A DNA stretch of 64,000 nt from a virus (IMGVR_UViG_2917762859_000001), one strand, 5' to 3'; counted from the first letter of the stretch, positions 22,459-30,061 are shown. Notes: generated by a model from the sequence alone, not told the origin. Numbers and translations: made by a program.

Positions 22459-23231
22459 GACGAAGCCTCCGATCCTGCATCGCTATCAGAGCCTTTAATA
22501 TAAACGCTAAACTTTTTACCTAAAAATTCCTCATGATCTGCGAACTTAAAAGCTAAATCCATGTTCATATCTGCTAAAGTTGATGCCGTTGAGCAGTTTG
22601 TTGTTACCATGTATGAATTTATAGGCTCATCGAATCTATTGTCACTAATGTACTCGACACTTAGCACCTGATAGTTATTGTCATCTATTAGATCCATGAT
22701 AATCCCTGACAACATCTCAGTTTCTGGCTGAGAGAACCCAGCCATATCTCTAAATTTAGACAGGGCTGAGCTAGCTTTTTTTAACTCTTCCTGTAATTTC
22801 ATGCGCTCCTCATTTAGAGATAATTTTATCCACTGTGTCATGAAAACACCCATCATTTTTAAATCAGCAAAAAACAAGCTATATTGGAATGCAAATTTAG
22901 CAAATATTTTTGATTCGTATTCCGTGGCAAGTCTCGCAGATAGCTCTCTTGCCTGCCTTGTCGATCCTAAATTGCAAATGATTGATAGATATCCAAGAGC
23001 ATAATCACCGTTAGGAACCTGTAGAGCTAATTCAAAATAATAAATTGATTTTTGGATATTTTTATTTAGTCCATAAGCAATACCAAGTGCGTAATTCTTT
23101 TCAAGCCCAGAAAAATACTTGTTAATATCATTAATGTATCTCATTAGCGACATATCATCGATTGTCTGTCCAGACTGAAGCATCGAGGCCATTTTGGAAA
23201 GTAATTCTTCAGACTTGTGTATAGGTTGCAT
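22449..23231 (-). CDS. TPR-like helical protein, partner of the HEPN gene
   Basis: YALGIAYGLNKNIQKSIYYFELAL TPR-like motif; overlaps HEPN start by 10 nt. Confidence 0.6.
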   Translation of the reverse strand: MQPIHKSEELLSKMASMLQSGQTIDDMSLMRYINDINKYFSGLEKNYALGIAYGLNKNIQKSIYYFELALQVPNGDYALGYLSIICNLGSTRQARELSARLATEYESKIFAKFAFQYSLFFADLKMMGVFMTQWIKLSLNEERMKLQEELKKASSALSKFRDMAGFSQPETEMLSGIIMDLIDDNNYQVLSVEYISDNRFDEPINSYMVTTNCSTASTLADMNMDLAFKFADHEEFLGKKFSVYIKGSDSDAGSEASSCQ

Positions 23232-23383
23232 ACTTTATTTATCTGCCTAGTTACGCAATTTGATAAAAATAACTGAGGCTATCGTAAAACAACATTTAGT
23301 TAACTTCAATAAAAGTTTGTGCCTCCGAGAGGAGTATCACTATCTATTATAAGAGATAAATCTCTATTTAGATGAGATTTGAA

Positions 23384-23399
23384 CTGTACATAAAAACAG
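23384..23399. promoter_or_regulatory. LexA (SOS) box
   Basis: CTGTACATAAAAACAG fits CTG-N10-CAG with an AT-rich core. Confidence 0.7.
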
Positions 23400-23551
23400 T
23401 GCCGCTACCCACAAAACGGCTCAAATCCACCGTTCGTTTATCTTCGGACTAGATTGGGATTGTGGCTTTCAGAAAACAACAAAGGGCACGGATGCCCTGA
23501 GTTTGAGCGATAAGAATCAAATACAGCAGTTTGTTTTGCAAGTTCAAGGTG

Positions 23552-24220
23552 TCATACGAAACGCATCATCATTTGAACCACGACGCCGATAATTTTACAA
23601 TTACCATTAATCGATATCATTGGCCACGCCGGATTTAGCCCCTTAAGAAAATGACTATTCCCATCTATTACTAATTTTTTAAAAGTAGCCTCATTTGTGT
23701 CAGTTAACTTGGCAATTACTAAGCTTCCATTTATTGGTTCTCTGCCCGTATCGACAAGTACAAGTGAGCCTTCAGGAATACTAACCCCAATCGGAGCCGT
23801 CATGGAATCTCCCTCCACTCGTAGCCAGAATGCAGAACCATGCATTTTGACTTCTGACTCATACCATTCATCTATTTGATCTAGTGTGTATGGCTCACAA
23901 GCCTCGTTCCAATTTCCCGCTTGAACCATACTCAATACGGGATATTTTGGGGACGGTTTGTATAGTCTTGGGTTTGATACATTATTATCGAATTGCTCAG
24001 TAACTTCCTGCTTTGGTTCTTTCCCATGAAGTAACCATTTAGGTGAACATTTCAGCGCTGCTGCAATCTTGAAAAGATTTGCCGATCTTGTGTCCTGAGA
24101 TTCACCGAGTTCAATTTTACTAATTGTTACTCTCGACACACCTGTTAATTTTGCAAGGTCATCTTGTGACATACCCAGCTCAGTTCGCCGCTCAAGCAAT
24201 CTTTCTCCAAATGTACTCAT
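23552..24220 (-). CDS. cI: CI-like repressor (HTH + S24 peptidase)
   Basis: N-terminal HTH, VQAG cleavage site, VEGDSM and ATFKKL catalytic motifs. Confidence 0.95.
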   Translation of the reverse strand: MSTFGERLLERRTELGMSQDDLAKLTGVSRVTISKIELGESQDTRSANLFKIAAALKCSPKWLLHGKEPKQEVTEQFDNNVSNPRLYKPSPKYPVLSMVQAGNWNEACEPYTLDQIDEWYESEVKMHGSAFWLRVEGDSMTAPIGVSIPEGSLVLVDTGREPINGSLVIAKLTDTNEATFKKLVIDGNSHFLKGLNPAWPMISINGNCKIIGVVVQMMMRFV

Positions 24221-24244
24221 TTTTTCGCCTCAAAAAGTTATCCC

Positions 24245-24315
24245 GAAACTAATATATCAAAAAGAATTGAAACTTAACTTTCTTTTTAATATGATTTAAC
24301 GAAAGAAAACTTTCA
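24245..24315. promoter_or_regulatory. Putative OR operators (pR/pRM)
   Basis: GAAACTAATATATC, GAAACTTAACTTTC and GAAAGAAAACTTTC between divergent cI and cro. Confidence 0.6.
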
Positions 24316-24325
24316 AGGATAAATT

Positions 24326-24544
24326 ATGAATTTATATGAAATCTTAAAAGGCATTCATAAAACGAATGCTGCGATAGGCAAAGCTTATCCGTTAAAAGGG
24401 AAGCCTCGTAGTAGCCAAGGGGTTGGCAAATGGAAGTGGCGTGGTGTTCCTGAAGATGTGGCAATTCTCTGTCATTACGATCCTGAAATTCCATATACAC
24501 ACGAGCGATTAAACCATGCACCAAATCAATATGCCGATGCCTGA
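24326..24544 (+). CDS. cro: Cro-like protein
   Basis: 72 aa, divergent from cI; SSQGVGKW HTH-like segment. Confidence 0.7.
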   Translation: MNLYEILKGIHKTNAAIGKAYPLKGKPRSSQGVGKWKWRGVPEDVAILCHYDPEIPYTHERLNHAPNQYADA

Positions 24545-24785
24545 TCACTACTTTCCTGATGATGCTAAGTGGATTCAGGAACAACTCACGAAGTTAAGCC
24601 CAAGCATGAGGCAAAAGGCATTAGTTAAATATTCAGAAGTGTATCAAACGGAATGGGAACGAGAACAAGTTCCCTACCGTAAAGACAACAAAGCTCGTCA
24701 TGAGGCTAACGTGAGATTAAGAGAGTTCATAAAGCGTTATCAGAGAGCAATGCAAGGGTACACAGCAAAGCCGTTATCGATTTAG
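24516..24785 (+). CDS. Phage hypothetical protein
   Basis: Follows cro. Confidence 0.65.
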   Translation: MHQINMPMPDHYFPDDAKWIQEQLTKLSPSMRQKALVKYSEVYQTEWEREQVPYRKDNKARHEANVRLREFIKRYQRAMQGYTAKPLSI

Positions 24786-24817
24786 TAGTAATTAAATTTA
24801 GGAGGCATTGGAAGTTA

Positions 24818-24833
24818 AGACGTTTAGCCGTCT
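24818..24833. promoter_or_regulatory. Tandem Met boxes (putative MetJ operator)
   Basis: AGACGTTT-AGCCGTCT (7/8 and 7/8 vs AGACGTCT). Confidence 0.5.
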
Positions 24834-24844
24834 AGATTGTTTTC

Positions 24845-24960
24845 TGGGGAAGAGGGGGAAACTTTCTAGGGGGGAAAGGGGGGTGATCTTTGAAAGGGGT
24901 GTTAGGGAAGGCACAGCCAAGGGAGTGAGCAGATCTTAAATATAGATCTCTATAGGAGCT
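24845..24960. other. G-tract/purine-rich non-coding segment, putative replication origin
   Basis: Multiple G4-G6 runs and an AGATCT palindrome pair upstream of helicase/primase. Confidence 0.4.
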
Positions 24961-24971
24961 AAAAAGCCAAC

Positions 24972-24987
24972 AGCCGTTTAGACGTCC
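24972..24987. promoter_or_regulatory. Tandem Met boxes (putative MetJ operator)
   Basis: AGCCGTTT-AGACGTCC (6/8 and 7/8). Confidence 0.5.
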
Positions 24988-25033
24988 AAAGAAATAAAAA
25001 TAAATCCCTTCCTTTGGCAATGCTAATTATCAG

Positions 25034-26611
25034 ATGAGGAAACCGATGTTAACAATCACACCAAATTTTGCACAGGAACGCGGATTGACGATGTTACGTC
25101 AGGCATGGAAGCAAAATAGAACATTCATGATTTATAGCCCAACAGGAAGCGGGAAAACGGCATTAGCTGCGTTTATTACTGATGGACATATTCAGCGTGG
25201 AATGAGAGTGATGTTTCTTGTTCCTTACACAATTTTGATTGATCAAACAGCCAGTCGTTTTATTGAGTATGGCTTGCCAGCTGAAGAGATTAGCTATGTA
25301 TGGCGTGATCACCCTAATTATGATCCGACTCGTTTAATTCAAATCGCATCAGCAGATACCGTTATTCGTCGAGACTTTCCAGACAATATCGATTTACTCA
25401 TTATCGATGAGGCGCATTTACGCCGTAAGAAAATATTAGAAGTGATCAGTGAGTGTGAATTCAAGGTAATTGGTTTGTCTGGTACGCCTTTTGCCTCATT
25501 CCTTGGACATTACTACGAAACATTAATCAAACCTACCACCATGAAAGAGTTAATCAAACGTGGTGATTTAAGCTCATACGAGTTCTATGCGCCGACTAAA
25601 CCCGATTTATCAAAAGTGAAATCGTCCAGCAACGCAGAGTTCGGTAGTGATTATAAAGAAGTTGAGATAGCTGAAATTATGAGTGGTGCTGATTTGGTGG
25701 GAGATATTGTTGATAACTGGCTTGTGAATGGTCGAAACCTACCGACGATTTGCTTTTGTGTCACGGTCAGTCATGCCAATTTTGTCACTGTCGAATTTAA
25801 CCGCGCAGGTGTGAATGCAGAGGTGATCACCGCAGATACGCCACATGATGAGCGTCAGATCATTATTCATCGGTTTGAGCAAGGCGCGACTAAGATACTT
25901 GTGAGCGTGGGAACATTGATTGCCGGCTTTGATAGTGATGTTCGTTGCATTATTTATGCCCGTCCAACTAAATCAGAAATTCGTTGGTGTCAGGCGATTG
26001 GTAGAGGATTGCGTACTGCGCCAGGGAAAGAAACTTGCCTTATTTTCGATCACTCCGGTTCTGTTCACCGCTTAGGTTATCCAGATGACATTGAATATGA
26101 CGAACTGCCTACCAAAAACGACGGCATGAGTGAATCCTCATCTATCCGAGAGCAAGAAAAACAAGAGAAGAAACCCAAAGAATGTTCCTCTTGCCACTAC
26201 ATGAAGCCTGCAGGTGTTTATGTTTGCCCTAAATGTGGGTTTAAACCTTTAGTTGGTGAAGATATTGATGTTGATACTAGTCGAAACATCAAAAAACTAA
26301 ATAAGAAAGAACGCACTTACACCCGAGAAGACAAGCAAAGCTGGTGGTCTCAATTGAAATACTACCAGAATCAACGCGCAACACAGGGCAAGCCGATTAG
26401 CGATGGTTGGGTTTCTAATACTTTCAAAGATAAATTTGGCGTATGGCCACAAGGCTTTCATAACACACCACAAGAAATCACACCTGAAGTGAGCAACTTT
26501 ATTAAATACAAACAAATCGCCTTTGCTAAGTCTCGCAAGAAGGCACAAGTCAATATTCAAAATCTACGCACTCAAATTAGCCACCAGCCACAGCAAGGAG
26601 GTTTACTGTGA
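25034..26611 (+). CDS. SF2 DEAH helicase with Zn finger
   Basis: PTGSGKT, DEAH, QAIGRGLR and CxxC..CPKCG motifs. Confidence 0.9.
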   Translation: MRKPMLTITPNFAQERGLTMLRQAWKQNRTFMIYSPTGSGKTALAAFITDGHIQRGMRVMFLVPYTILIDQTASRFIEYGLPAEEISYVWRDHPNYDPTRLIQIASADTVIRRDFPDNIDLLIIDEAHLRRKKILEVISECEFKVIGLSGTPFASFLGHYYETLIKPTTMKELIKRGDLSSYEFYAPTKPDLSKVKSSSNAEFGSDYKEVEIAEIMSGADLVGDIVDNWLVNGRNLPTICFCVTVSHANFVTVEFNRAGVNAEVITADTPHDERQIIIHRFEQGATKILVSVGTLIAGFDSDVRCIIYARPTKSEIRWCQAIGRGLRTAPGKETCLIFDHSGSVHRLGYPDDIEYDELPTKNDGMSESSSIREQEKQEKKPKECSSCHYMKPAGVYVCPKCGFKPLVGEDIDVDTSRNIKKLNKKERTYTREDKQSWWSQLKYYQNQRATQGKPISDGWVSNTFKDKFGVWPQGFHNTPQEITPEVSNFIKYKQIAFAKSRKKAQVNIQNLRTQISHQPQQGGLL

Positions 26612-27582
26612 ATACCATTGATGCGGTAAAAGGACTATGGGCAAAAATATTTGCACATTATGGGTTACCTCCTATAACGGGCCGTAAGCACTTTAAAGGA
26701 AAGTGCCCTATCTGCGGGCAGAAAGGAAAATTCCGTATTGATGATAAAGACGGACGAGGAACTTATATTTGCACGTGCAGTTCGGGTAACGGTTTTCAAT
26801 TGCTGGAAAGAACACAAGGCAAAGACTTTAAAACATTAGCAGATGAAATTGATGTATTGATTGGTAATCACCGAGAAAAAGAAATTATTCCACCCAACAA
26901 AGTCAATAAGAATAATTTATTCCAACGTATTACGGGCTGTTATTCCAAACTACCCATACTTAAAAATACACCCGCCATGCAGTATTTGCAGAATCGAGGT
27001 GTTTTTGAGTTACCACTTGATAATGTCCGTTATTGTGATCATCAACCTGTTCGTAATAGTTCTGACAAATTTCAAGCTATCTGGTCACTAGCTACTGATG
27101 CTAAAGGGCAACTCTGTTATTTACATAGAACGTATTTACAAGGGGATAAAAAAGCACCTCTTGATATTGTGAAGAAAATGACTGCTGTGCAGGATGACAA
27201 TTATTTAGAGTATGCAGAATCTGTCGCGATAAGAATGTTTCCTGTCGATACTACACTTGGCATTGCTGAAGGTATAGAGACCGCACTTTCTTGTAAGCAA
27301 CTCTATGGTGTAAATGCTTGGTCGGTCATTAATACTAACTTCATGAAAAAATTCAAAGCACCGAAGGGTGTTACTCATCTTGTTATCTTTACAGATATGG
27401 ATTGGAATGCGGCTGGTCATGCAGCTGCTATGGAGTGCGCGCATAAAAACCTACTTTCTAATAATGATGTAGAGACAGTAAGAGTGAGATGGCCCGATAG
27501 AGGTGACTTTAACGATATGCTAACAGAAGCTTGTGAGGTAAGAGAGTTAGTATTTTCAAGACAACATAAGGAAGTGGCATAA
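26608..27582 (+). CDS. DNA primase (Zn-binding + Toprim)
   Basis: [16 protein letters not shown] and GDFNDML motifs. Confidence 0.9.
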
Positions 27583-27965
27583 TGCGTGATATACAACAGG
27601 TATTAGAAAGATGGGGTGCATGGTCGGCAGATAATACAGAGTCGGTCCAATGGTATTCGGTTGCTGCGGGGTTTAGTGGATTAATACCAAGTAAAGTTAA
27701 GGCTCGCCCCCAATGTTGTGAAGACGATGCAATAATTATTTCTAGTTGTATGGCGCAATTGAATAAAAAGAATAGTGATATGCATGACCTATTGCTTGAT
27801 TACTATTTATTCGGAATGACATTTATGCAACTTGCTAACAAGCACAATTGTTCTGATGGGCATATAGGTAAAAAATTACAAAAGGCAGAAGGAATAATAG
27901 AAGGTATGTTAATGATGCTAGATGTTTCCTTAGAAATGGATCGATATGTAGAAAAAATCATATAA
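27582..27965 (+). CDS. Q: Antitermination protein Q
   Basis: [14 protein letters not shown] and LQKAEG motifs. Confidence 0.9.
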
Positions 27966-28030
27966 AAACTTTACGTACGTAAAAATGATGATATTGTGAT
28001 AAGACTGACATCAAGGTCAACTAGCTTATG

Positions 28031-28053
28031 AACCTCATTTAAAGTGAGGTTTT
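28031..28053 (+). terminator. Putative tR' late-leader terminator
   Basis: AACCTCA-TTTAAAG-TGAGGTT followed by T-rich tail, just after Q. Confidence 0.7.
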
Positions 28054-28100
28054 GTGTTTTTATTGGTTATTCTCTTTGTCTGCGCTTTTAATTTTTAAAA

Positions 28101-28135
28101 TGAAATAGCTTCATATTAAATATGAAATAGTTTCA
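28101..28135 (+). promoter_or_regulatory. Two MetR-type binding sites
   Basis: TGAAATAGCTTCA and TGAAATAGTTTCA fit TGAA-N5-TTCA, 22 bp apart, upstream of the methionine synthase. Confidence 0.7.
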
Positions 28136-28205
28136 ATATCCATTTTTTTTATTAATGCTATGTTTGGTAGCAAAATTCTTAATAAGAAAATATAGGATAT
28201 ATTGA

Positions 28206-29372
28206 ATGAGCACTAACATCCCTCCATTTAAAGCTGATGTCGTTGGTAGTTACCTTCGACCTGAATATCTACATAAAGCGCGTAGCGATTATGCTAATGG
28301 CACTATTTCTAGCCATGAATTAAAAAAAATAGAAGATAAAGCAATCATTGAGTTAGTAGAAAAGCAGAAAAAAGCCGGATTACATGTTATTACCGATGGT
28401 GAGTTTCGTCGTAGCTGGTGGCATTTAGACTTTATGTGGGGATTAAACGGCGTTGAAAAAGCCTTTTTATCTAAAGGATATTCATTCGATGGTATTGAAA
28501 CTCGTCCAGAGACGGCTCGATTAACAGGAAAAATATCTGGAAATAACCACCCTTTTATTGAACATTTTTCATTTTTGTTGAAATTTGCTGAGGATAATAT
28601 TGTTCCTCGTTTAACGATCCCTGCACCAGCTCAATTTTTCAAAGAGCTTTATCGACCAGAGAATTTAGATAGCACTAATGCAATTTATCCTTCAAAAGAT
28701 GAGTTAATTAACGATATTATTGGTGCTTATCAAGAATTCATAAAAGAGTTATATCTTGTAGGGTGTCGCAATTTGCAATTAGATGATTGTACTTGGGGTA
28801 TGATGGTTGATTCTCGATATCACAACTCAGGTATTGCTGAGAGCGAAAGTGTAAATAGTTGCTCATGCCATTCAGATCATACTGTAATAAGCAATGATAT
28901 AAACTCATTAGCGGAAACGCTTGTTTATTTGAATAATGAAGCGATTAAAAACGCACCATCAGATTTAGTGTTAACAACACATGTTTGCCGAGGTAATTAT
29001 CGTTCTACATGGGCCGCTAGTGGTGGCTATGGACCGATTGCTGAGATCCTTTTTGGAAGAGAAAATGTATCAGCATATTATTTAGAGTTTGATACAGATA
29101 GAGCTGGTGATTTCTCCCCGTTATCTTATGTTTCAGGCAATAAAAAAGTTGTTCTGGGATTAATTTCTTCAAAAACTGGAGAGTTAGAGAGTAAACAAAA
29201 AGTAATAGAGCGAATCTATGAAGCTAGTAAGTTCGTACCATTAGATCGACTATGTTTAAGTACTCAATGTGGATTTGCATCAACTGAAGAAGGGAATGCA
29301 TTAACTGAAGAGCAACAATGGGATAAAATTGCATTAGTAAAAGAGATTGCTCAAGAAGTCTGGAAATATTAA
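28206..29372 (+). CDS. Cobalamin-independent methionine synthase II (short MetE, YxjG/H-like)
   Basis: DVVGSYLRP, TDGEFRR, HVCRGN, LEFD and QCGFAS zinc-ligand motifs. Confidence 0.9.
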   Translation: MSTNIPPFKADVVGSYLRPEYLHKARSDYANGTISSHELKKIEDKAIIELVEKQKKAGLHVITDGEFRRSWWHLDFMWGLNGVEKAFLSKGYSFDGIETRPETARLTGKISGNNHPFIEHFSFLLKFAEDNIVPRLTIPAPAQFFKELYRPENLDSTNAIYPSKDELINDIIGAYQEFIKELYLVGCRNLQLDDCTWGMMVDSRYHNSGIAESESVNSCSCHSDHTVISNDINSLAETLVYLNNEAIKNAPSDLVLTTHVCRGNYRSTWAASGGYGPIAEILFGRENVSAYYLEFDTDRAGDFSPLSYVSGNKKVVLGLISSKTGELESKQKVIERIYEASKFVPLDRLCLSTQCGFASTEEGNALTEEQQWDKIALVKEIAQEVWKY

Positions 29373-29440
29373 TCCCACAGACTGAAAACGTTATTACTCA
29401 TAAAACTCCATATATCGTGAGATTATTGATAGTTTTTTTA

Positions 29441-29465
29441 AAACCTCGCTTCGGCGGGGTTTTTT
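29441..29465 (+). terminator. Rho-independent terminator
   Basis: ACCTCGC-TTCG-GCGGGGT followed by T run. Confidence 0.85.
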
Positions 29466-29747
29466 GTTATCTGCAATGGTAAGGTGTCTTTTGGTGAGTA
29501 AAATCACCCTTGCACTGCATGGAGAAGGCGCCTTAACCATTGTGGAGAATGCCAAGGCTGATTGGCTAACTCGCATGGGCTACTGCACTTATCAGGATAG
29601 AAGCACACACGCCATGGGGAACCTGAACGCATACACTCTCAGCGTATGCCTCCACAATTATTCCAACCATCCGGAATTACCGGATAGTTCACATTTTGAA
29701 GATCGCCTAGGCGGTCTTTTTTATTATCTAAAATAAGGAACGAAATT

Positions 29748-29996
29748 ATGTACGCACTTAAATTAATTACTGAACGTGAAGGTCGTAAAGTGGAAGAAGT
29801 CCACTGCTTAGGAGAAATGTACCGCCTAGAGTTTTACCCAGAATCAGAAAATAAAGATATCGTGGCGCGGGTTGAACACACAAAGAAAGATGCTATCCCT
29901 TCATTTGATATTAAGCGTACAGATCATGCTTACATTACGACAGTAACAGGTGATACTGTTCGGGTTATTTCCAGAGGCAGAAAAGCTTGCCAGTAA
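29748..29996 (+). CDS. Phage hypothetical protein
   Basis: AAGGA RBS; terminators on both sides. Confidence 0.7.
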   Translation: MYALKLITEREGRKVEEVHCLGEMYRLEFYPESENKDIVARVEHTKKDAIPSFDIKRTDHAYITTVTGDTVRVISRGRKACQ

Positions 29997-30061
29997 GGTC
30001 ATTTCGGTGGCTTTTTTTATTTCTACCATTTTGTTGATATCACCGAAATGGTTTCGTATAT

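Follow-up and report, generated by a model that had tools for sequence, protein, structure and literature searches.

The prophage described here lies in a 64,000-nt stretch of viral DNA (IMGVR_UViG_2917762859_000001, the whole of which is called the window), where a gene-free noncoding element of ~260 bp (24786-25046) separates an open reading frame (ORF) of the phrog_852 family from the gene of a superfamily 2 (SF2) helicase. A conserved G-rich core within this element is bracketed by two arrays of 8-bp Met boxes. We consider it probable that these boxes are operators of the host aporepressor MetJ loaded with S-adenosylmethionine (SAM), situated beside an element that is probably the origin of an Eru1-type replicon or controls its initiation, and that the methionine gene carried further downstream is unrelated cargo. 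The flanking sequences are conserved, they are interchangeable between phages with a second type of sequence, and they are independent of the cargo, while MetJ and TrpR binding, the origin function and any regulatory outcome are what we infer from them. Since the same flanks carry TrpR-type operators in relatives, the signal read by the element would be a host amino-acid aporepressor, and not methionine specifically.

MetJ binds DNA only with SAM as the corepressor, and its candidate operators were sought as two tandem 8-bp boxes of the consensus AGACGTCT, with at most 3 mismatches unless stated otherwise. The left array (AGACGTTT AGCCGTCT (AGATTGTT), 24818..24841) abuts the core; its first pair (AGACGTTTAGCCGTCT, 24818-24833) exhibits 2 mismatches to two consensus boxes and is followed, in register, by a third, weaker box, AGATTGTT. 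The right pair (AGCCGTTT AGACGTCC, 24972..24987; AGCCGTTTAGACGTCC as one string) exhibits 3 mismatches and is located 60-75 bp 5' of the helicase start. An earlier interpretation made without database searches (the sequence-only reading) had described two tandem Met-box pairs on both sides of the noncoding segment that precedes the helicase, primase and Q genes, and this description was borne out: the window contains these two pairs and no further match, against an expectation of 0.07, and 1 of 100 shuffles reached 2. The search of the prophage's own genome (4.4 Mb, 38% G+C, searched for motifs as a whole) revealed 13 matching pairs in 9 regions, six of which are situated at met genes (metE/metR, metB/metJ, metA, metN, metK and a second metN-like gene); of the remaining three, one is the phage element, which was matched twice, one lies in an integrase ORF and one upstream of an OsmC-like gene. 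When the chromosome was simulated three times with a first-order Markov model, 4, 5 and 7 matches were obtained at up to 3 mismatches and none at up to 2, compared to the observed 13 and 4. The host encodes both metJ (194 bits) and metR, and the phage arrays display the tandem register and the match quality of the genome's own met operators.

Two of the other chromosomal matches are worth recording in their own right. A strong pair with 2 mismatches (AGACGTCTTTACGTCT, G000:C1:710643-710658, locus L005) lies 33 bp 5' of the OsmC-related gene and could indicate an unrecognised member of the MetJ regulon or a chance match. Three Met-box-like 8-mers in register are found inside the integrase-family ORF (G000:C1:94929-94952, locus L003).

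For comparative analysis, helicase searches provided 33 loci from genome contigs and 80 from viral contigs, which together with 3 phage records and the window itself make 117 related sources, in which the core was looked for between the phrog_852 ORF and the helicase gene with two nhmmer profiles. The core (24842..24960 in the window) was detected in 98 of the 117 sources. It comprises G-run repeats, the AT-rich stretch AGATCTTAAATATAGATCT and 3 GATC sites in 248 bp, and ~70 nt of it are almost invariant across phages whose helicases are 72-99% identical, i.e. it is conserved more tightly than the surrounding coding DNA. Conservation extends to the boxes: the left 16-mer is unchanged in 21 distinct Proteus-group sequences, which differ in the upstream spacer and in the bases next to the right pair, and the variants of the right pair in relatives (AGATGTCT, AGACGTCT) remain Met-box-like. 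In 34 distinct arrays from several genera the sequence differs and the strict 8-bp register is kept, with 2-4 boxes per array. The composition of the phage arrays resembles that of the 21 boxes in the host's six operators at positions 1-4, 6 and 8. In the 98 loci with the core (849,094 bp), all 107 Met pairs fall inside the flank windows (1.9% of the sequence); these loci are kin, many of them near-identical, and such counts show location, not independent events. By their host-like composition, their conservation as islands and their arrangement in 8-bp register across genera, the 8-mers look like real MetJ operators. A structured RNA in the intergenic transcript was considered and rejected (minimum free energy z = 0.31, with 119 of 200 shuffles folding equally well), and the Rfam search of 23000-30000 at E<=1 returned no match in the element, the weak matches being confined to the cargo terminator and places elsewhere.

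In many of the related phages, exactly the positions of the Met boxes are taken by palindromes of the form GTACT-N8-AGTAC, present once or twice. This pattern corresponds to GTACTAGTTAACTAGTAC, the consensus of TrpR operators, which was tested in 5 host genomes. At up to 3 mismatches it identified 14 sites (reversed control: 1, 1, 1, 5 and 1), which were placed by family scans and sequence context: 4 at trpE promoters, 1 at aroH, 1 upstream of trpR (L130), 3 in phage flanks and 3 unassigned, together with one in L134, whose sequence context is the same as that of L130 (the trpR gene scan covered L130 only), and one beside slt (L136). One complete genome of 4.8 Mb has just two matches, at the trp operator and in the phage flank. 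Among the 98 loci, all 18 exact matches to GTACT-N8-AGTAC are located in the flank windows, and at up to one mismatch 27 are inside and 4 outside. Flanks of this type occur in prophages of Klebsiella, Pantoea, Erwinia and Xenorhabdus as well as in Fels-1, Yersinia YP3 and Cronobacter ENT39118. One module of the enterobacterial type with TrpR-type flanks (L034) comes from a contig labelled Chryseobacterium sp. (Bacteroidota), and this assembly is probably mislabelled or mixed. A third type of flank was seen in the Stx2a phage P13374 (L045:2422-2630), with the long-spaced inverted repeats TTAGTTGC...GCAACTAA and ATAGTT...AACTAT; its comparison by eye with the consensus sites of ArgR, Fur, CytR and PurR revealed no convincing fit.

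The Met and Trp types can replace each other. Classification of the left and right flanks of the 98 loci gave 39 loci of the Met/Met type, 9 Met/weak Met, 4 weak Met/weak Met, 2 weak Met/Met and 7 Met/other, as well as 5 Trp/Trp, 7 Trp/weak Trp, 12 weak Trp/weak Trp and 3 Trp/other; a further 5 combine a Trp or weak Trp flank on the left with a Met or weak Met flank on the right, and in 5 a flank is cut off or unassigned. The mixed elements with Trp on the left and Met on the right are represented by L013, L035, L038, L077, L083 and L100. The clearest exchange is provided by L125, which is 95% identical over 7.4 kb to L120 and L105: identical borders, ...GAGATTGACCT and GGGGAAGAGGGG, enclose two Trp-type sites in L125 and three Met boxes in L120 and L105. 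The proteins encoded around this replacement in L125 and L120 are nearly the same (repressor 97% identical, cro-like protein 97%, phrog_852 95%, helicase 99%, primase 97.5%).

This exchange bears on the possibility that the boxes are iterons for a protein of the phage itself, be it the helicase, the primase, the phrog_852 product or a factor encoded elsewhere, and resemble host operators by accident. Iterons typically flank an origin, as the boxes probably do, the phage boxes carry a signature of their own (CGTTTAG, with a nearly invariant G5), and a trans-acting factor could be encoded beyond the 7-8 kb loci. However, the same positions hold two unrelated operator types, each matching a different host repressor; the Met and Trp types assort independently on the left and on the right; and the type was swapped between L125 and L120 with repressor, cro-like protein, phrog_852, helicase and primase remaining 95-99% identical. 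The phrog_852 clades do not track the flank type either: L025 has Met flanks and L038 Trp flanks, and the copy in L061, a locus devoid of the core, is 98% identical to that in the window. The predicted structure of the phrog_852 protein (predicted local distance difference test score, pLDDT, 81.6) is a three-helix model without a recognisable DNA-binding fold, for which the PDB search found no match at E<=0.001 (best 1.9). The near-identity of the early proteins across the swap, together with the phrog_852 clades and model, therefore favours host factors over a cassette-specific phage protein, and we regard iterons as an unlikely explanation. Two particular phage proteins were tried as the binder of the flanks and rejected, namely phrog_852, given the three-helix model without a PDB match and the lack of covariation with the flank type, and CI, whose alleles are 38-99% identical among phages with identical boxes and whose cI-cro spacer repeats differ from the flanks.

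The flanks might also be devoid of function, either as remnants or, in the case of the left pair, as a weak intrinsic terminator hairpin between early genes. The left pair was indeed flagged as terminator-like, with a 5-bp stem, a 6-nt loop and a T-rich tail. Yet the longer arrays of relatives (L014, L025, L040) cannot form the hairpin and keep the 8-bp register, the boxes are invariant among variable spacers, and the Trp-type flanks have no T tail. The terminator was rejected on these grounds, and this explanation as a whole appears most improbable to us.

The placement of putative aporepressor operators directly at the core raises the question of what the core is. It is noncoding DNA beside replication genes and contains repeats, an AT-rich stretch and GATC sites, i.e. 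the sequence features of an origin, and the helicase-primase-Q module includes no initiator gene. The phrog_852 ORF is kept immediately 5' of the noncoding element in every class of related locus. Class D comprises 7 phage loci without the core (L061 (2059-3507), L059, L070, L075, L093, L024 and L028). Their helicases show 77-99% identity (96-99% in the four Proteus-type members), and in two complete class D proviruses with helicases at least 98% identical the G-rich core is absent throughout. The slot is occupied in class D by a different noncoding stretch, an ORF of 218 aa and a NUMOD4/HNH homing-type endonuclease gene directly before the helicase; the 218-aa ORF scores 23.6 bits with RepL, which is above the cut-off, and below the cut-off with HTH_36. 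The presence of a RepL-like ORF in this slot and the lack of an initiator in the module led us to read the position as an origin or initiator slot, and thus the core is a probable origin or initiation-control element of the Eru1-type replicon, by analogy.

The element may accordingly be pictured as a modular cis-acting unit. Its conserved G-rich core would serve as origin, or control initiation, in a replicon that lacks an initiator gene of its own, and on each side of the core is a cassette matching the operator of a host aporepressor. Corepressor-loaded host repressors would occupy both sides of the core, and the use of the element would then follow the methionine/SAM or tryptophan status of the host, in either direction. 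Possible modes of action include licensing or blocking of origin use, a weak roadblock on the pR transcript, and titration of host repressors after amplification. The most far-reaching version, in which the initiator-less helicase-primase replicon uses MetJ-SAM and TrpR-tryptophan as licensing factors flanking its origin, so that replication fires or is blocked according to amino-acid sufficiency, with the sensor cassette exchanged by recombination, is put forward as a rather doubtful speculation. Titration could also be the whole purpose: hundreds of operator copies on amplified phage genomes would act as a sponge for MetJ or TrpR and derepress the host synthesis of methionine or tryptophan for phage proteins. 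Derepression of regulated genes by multicopy operators is a known effect, and a sponge would be compatible with either type of cassette, with site numbers that vary (2-4 boxes, 1-2 Trp sites) and with a phage that carries a met gene. A sponge does not need a fixed place, though, and yet a cassette is invariably found directly on either side of the same core, which makes this explanation improbable in our view.

Several observations weigh against aporepressor operators beside an origin, which we nevertheless prefer. In 5 other host genomes, the Met pattern was matched 7, 11, 10, 6 and 9 times and its reversed control 21, 5, 12, 7 and 5 times; as these counts are no higher than the control, the argument depends on the placement of the matches and not on their number. 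At neither Met-box array did the consensus scan predict a + strand sigma-70 promoter, so that the usual geometry of an operator over a promoter is unsupported. The phage boxes differ from those of the host at position 5 (G in 93% vs 48%) and at position 7 (C in 51% and T in 47% vs C in 86%), which could point to a different binder or merely to the shared ancestry of the cassettes. As regards TrpR, the strict consensus has no match in the prophage's own genome, where the loose GTACT-N8-AGTAC pattern occurs at the chance rate (4 vs ~5 expected), and some right flanks (L105-L125) as well as both flanks of P13374 fit neither type. Finally, the class D helicase-primase pair manages without the G-rich core, and position and analogy are the sole grounds for the assignment of the origin.

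The methionine-related gene lies behind Q. The ORF at 28206..29372 (+ strand, 388 aa) encodes a single-domain MetE-like protein, which the NCBIfam model NF005085 (PRK06520 subfamily) identified with 420 bits (cut-off 313). The models of true MetE equivalogs scored 31 against a cut-off of 541 and 30 against 930, and NF004875 scored 392 against 576; since the subfamily cut-off is passed and the equivalog cut-offs are missed, the protein is a member of the MetE superfamily and not a MetE equivalog. Its closest solved structure is 1YPX in the PDB (3.1e-104), an uncharacterised 'putative' protein from Listeria. Upstream of the gene, two MetR-type sites of the TGAA-N5-TTCA pattern, TGAAATAGCTTCA (28101-28113) and TGAAATAGTTTCA (28123-28135), are spaced 22 bp apart. 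The bare pattern is not rare (3 in the window vs 2.73 expected), and among the 239 sites of the chromosome these two form the only pair within 40 bp. Homologs of the MetE-like protein are present in 58 of 151 genomes of the family, own genome included; among the 30 best homologs from other genomes, 22 are preceded by TGAA-N5-TTCA at a distance of up to 350 bp (the genome rate predicts ~0.6) and 13 by a Met pair (<=4 mismatches), which is found neither at the phage copy nor at its four closest relatives. Most of the regions upstream of the chromosomal homologs L146-L170 share the order TGAA-N5-TTCA, then ATGAATTTTTCTCGTTTGC, then Met boxes. Judging from these regions, the single-domain MetE-like family looks like a regular member of the MetR/MetJ regulon in many Enterobacterales. 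Given the presence of TGAA-N5-TTCA upstream of 22 of the 30 homologs, the phage gene probably has a MetR-type promoter, and MetR control would be a trait of the gene family imported with the cargo.

The sequence-only reading amounts to the proposal of one co-adapted methionine/SAM-sensing circuit, in which the replication genes would respond to MetJ and a methionine synthase to MetR. Both sets of motifs do occur in this prophage, all 13 cargo-bearing loci with the core have Met-type flanks, and the cargo family belongs to the methionine regulon elsewhere. However, of the 87 core loci with enough downstream sequence, 13 combine Met flanks with the cargo, 47 have Met flanks and no cargo and 27 have neither, while L059 carries the cargo and has no core or boxes. 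The cargo, found in 14 of the 117 sources, is always accompanied by a Q allele 98-100% identical to that of the window, which argues for positional linkage within a single lineage of Proteus phages; the same slot holds an N6/N4 DNA methylase gene in L063 (6746-7789) and a Csp-like (cold-shock-protein-like) gene in L065; and in other phages the flanks switch to the TrpR type. The co-occurrence of Met boxes and the metE-like moron, proposed as a check of the circuit and carried out on the related loci, did not hold, as relatives without the met cargo have the boxes, an outcome that the sequence-only reading itself had listed as a refutation. This finding weakens the circuit idea and at the same time strengthens the MetJ-site reading of the boxes; with the 47 loci against 13 and the TrpR-type flanks of relatives, a single circuit is very unlikely, and the MetE-like gene is better described, from these comparisons, as independent cargo in a variable slot after Q and a terminator than as a co-evolved partner of the boxes. 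Thus, the proposal that the phage reads both host regulators survives in its parts, inasmuch as the boxes look like MetJ operators and a MetR-type promoter is probable, and is not supported as a joint circuit. The two TGAA-N5-TTCA sites are where they were described; the terminator-like hairpin (28030-28052) that intervenes between Q and these sites is a correction to that reading.

The remaining genes and signals outline the early-right arm of a Proteus-type, lambdoid-style prophage in what is probably a Proteus genome, the closest relatives being Proteus contigs. A CI-type repressor with a helix-turn-helix domain and an S24 peptidase domain is encoded on the - strand (23552..24220; Pfam HTH_3 6.9e-15, Peptidase_S24 8.4e-26). 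The region's best promoter-like match, a pR-like early rightward promoter (TTGAAA-17-TATGAT, 24267..24295, + strand), is a consensus match only, at 10 of 12 positions. The genes and terminators from here to the end of the cargo unit are on the + strand. The ORF in the cro position (24326..24544, 72 aa) belongs to phrog_4749 (unknown function; PHROGs 2.5e-36) and had no match in the Pfam scan; that in the cII position (24516..24785, 89 aa) is the phrog_852 ORF mentioned above (unknown function; PHROGs 2.6e-35). The SF2 (DEAD/ResIII) helicase of the Eru1-type replication module (25047..26611; Pfam ResIII, Helicase_C, DEAD) most likely starts at ATG 25047, behind GAGGAAACCG, and not at 25034 as assumed before, because the alignments of relatives begin at residue 5 of the longer ORF. 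It is followed by a Toprim/zinc-ribbon DNA primase resembling the primase part of P4 alpha (26608..27582; Pfam DUF7146, Toprim_3, Zn_Ribbon_Prim; phrog_510 DNA primase), by the antiterminator Q (27582..27965; Pfam Phage_antitermQ 6.4e-50) and, in the tR' position 3' of Q, by the terminator-like hairpin (28030..28052), a 10-pair stem with a subsequent T run. The cargo unit ends with an intrinsic terminator of the same make (29440..29463; 10-pair stem, then a T run), and a holin gene is located further downstream. The helicase and the primase, situated beside cI/cro in place of O and P, constitute a unit of the Eru1 type. Megablast against phage records returned one match, a 58-bp terminator stretch of a Proteus phage. 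Two contig runs of RNA data contain parts of the region, one of them as a class D variant, and such contigs say nothing on transcription; two runs of raw reads were without the prophage apart from the shared terminator. A conserved motif, YTGGCAGTG...ATTATYCAAGTGAGG, is located at 24995-25033 and at the corresponding place in relatives, in the gap that separates the right cassette from the start codon following it, and is present even in class D phages. On the minus strand, a promoter-like match (TTGTTA-18-GATAAT, 25055-25026) at the helicase start points to the left, across the right Met boxes and into the core; an antisense promoter and a chance occurrence are both conceivable.

Comparison with known systems places the element among, and apart from, several of them. 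Like the MetJ operators of the enterobacterial met regulon, as presented in the consulted part of a regulon study (PMC3228920), the phage arrays consist of 2-4 tandem 8-bp repeats with the consensus AGACGTCT; they share degenerate variants with the metE/R, metA, metN and metK operators of the host, and the right pair lies ~60-75 bp before a start codon, compared to the average gap of ~75 bases given in that part of the study. In contrast to those operators, they are not located at a methionine gene and do not coincide with a predicted promoter; they come as two arrays, one on each side of a noncoding element, and T7 and G5 are commoner than in host boxes. In the same portion of the survey (PMC3228920), prophages are mentioned only for the mmuPM genes and the mtn gene cluster. 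The TrpR-type flanks of the sister phages match GTACTAGTTAACTAGTAC about as well as the chromosomal operators of the same genomes (trpEDCBA, aroH, trpR); unlike these, they stand in ones or twos beside the G-rich core and not over a biosynthetic promoter, and the type is missing from the window's own prophage. With the Eru1 unit of Stx phages, as described in the main text of two papers (PMC8044961, PMC8951638), the prophage shares the order of CI, small ORFs, SF2 helicase, primase and Q, and its helicase is 67.6% identical to those of the Stx2a phages TL-2011c and P13374 (70.6% to Fels-1, 79.3% to Providencia phage PSTCR3); the difference is in the flanks of P13374, which are of the third, unassigned type. 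Word searches of the main text of both papers found no mention of an iteron or intergenic element, and those of the 2021 paper no 'origin of replication', 'ori' or 'non-coding'. Literature searches, in which supplementary tables were not covered, did not bring up any phage whose replication region had been described as having MetJ or TrpR sites.

Lambdoid phages have a slot for cargo (moron) genes after Q and tR', as used by stx, and the MetE-like gene conforms to it, being located after Q and a terminator, having its own promoter region and terminator and being replaced by other genes in sister phages. What distinguishes it is that the cargo is an enzyme of a methionine-regulon family, with a putative activity; a phage-borne member of such a family is the smaller point of this analysis. 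The larger one concerns a temperate phage family that is widespread (Proteus, Providencia, Morganella, Xenorhabdus, Photorhabdus, Salmonella Fels-1, Klebsiella, Yersinia, Cronobacter) and related to the Stx Eru1 unit. If MetJ and TrpR do bind, this family would tie its replication region to the amino-acid status of the host via plug-in operator cassettes, which would constitute a new nutritional input to phage replication or to the lysis-lysogeny decision, beside SOS and ppGpp (guanosine tetraphosphate), and a natural example of modular sensor exchange. Co-option of host regulators by mobile elements has precedents: LexA acts at the lambda oop promoter between cII and O, ArgR with PepA at ColE1 cer, DnaA and IHF at phage and plasmid origins, and IciA/ArgP at oriC. 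We know of no described case in which operators of two aporepressors replace each other at the same positions. As in the precedents, a host DNA-binding protein, sometimes an amino-acid-responsive one, would act at a cis element of a mobile replicon; unlike them, the phage element presents the putative operators of two aporepressors as interchangeable cassettes at the same two positions.

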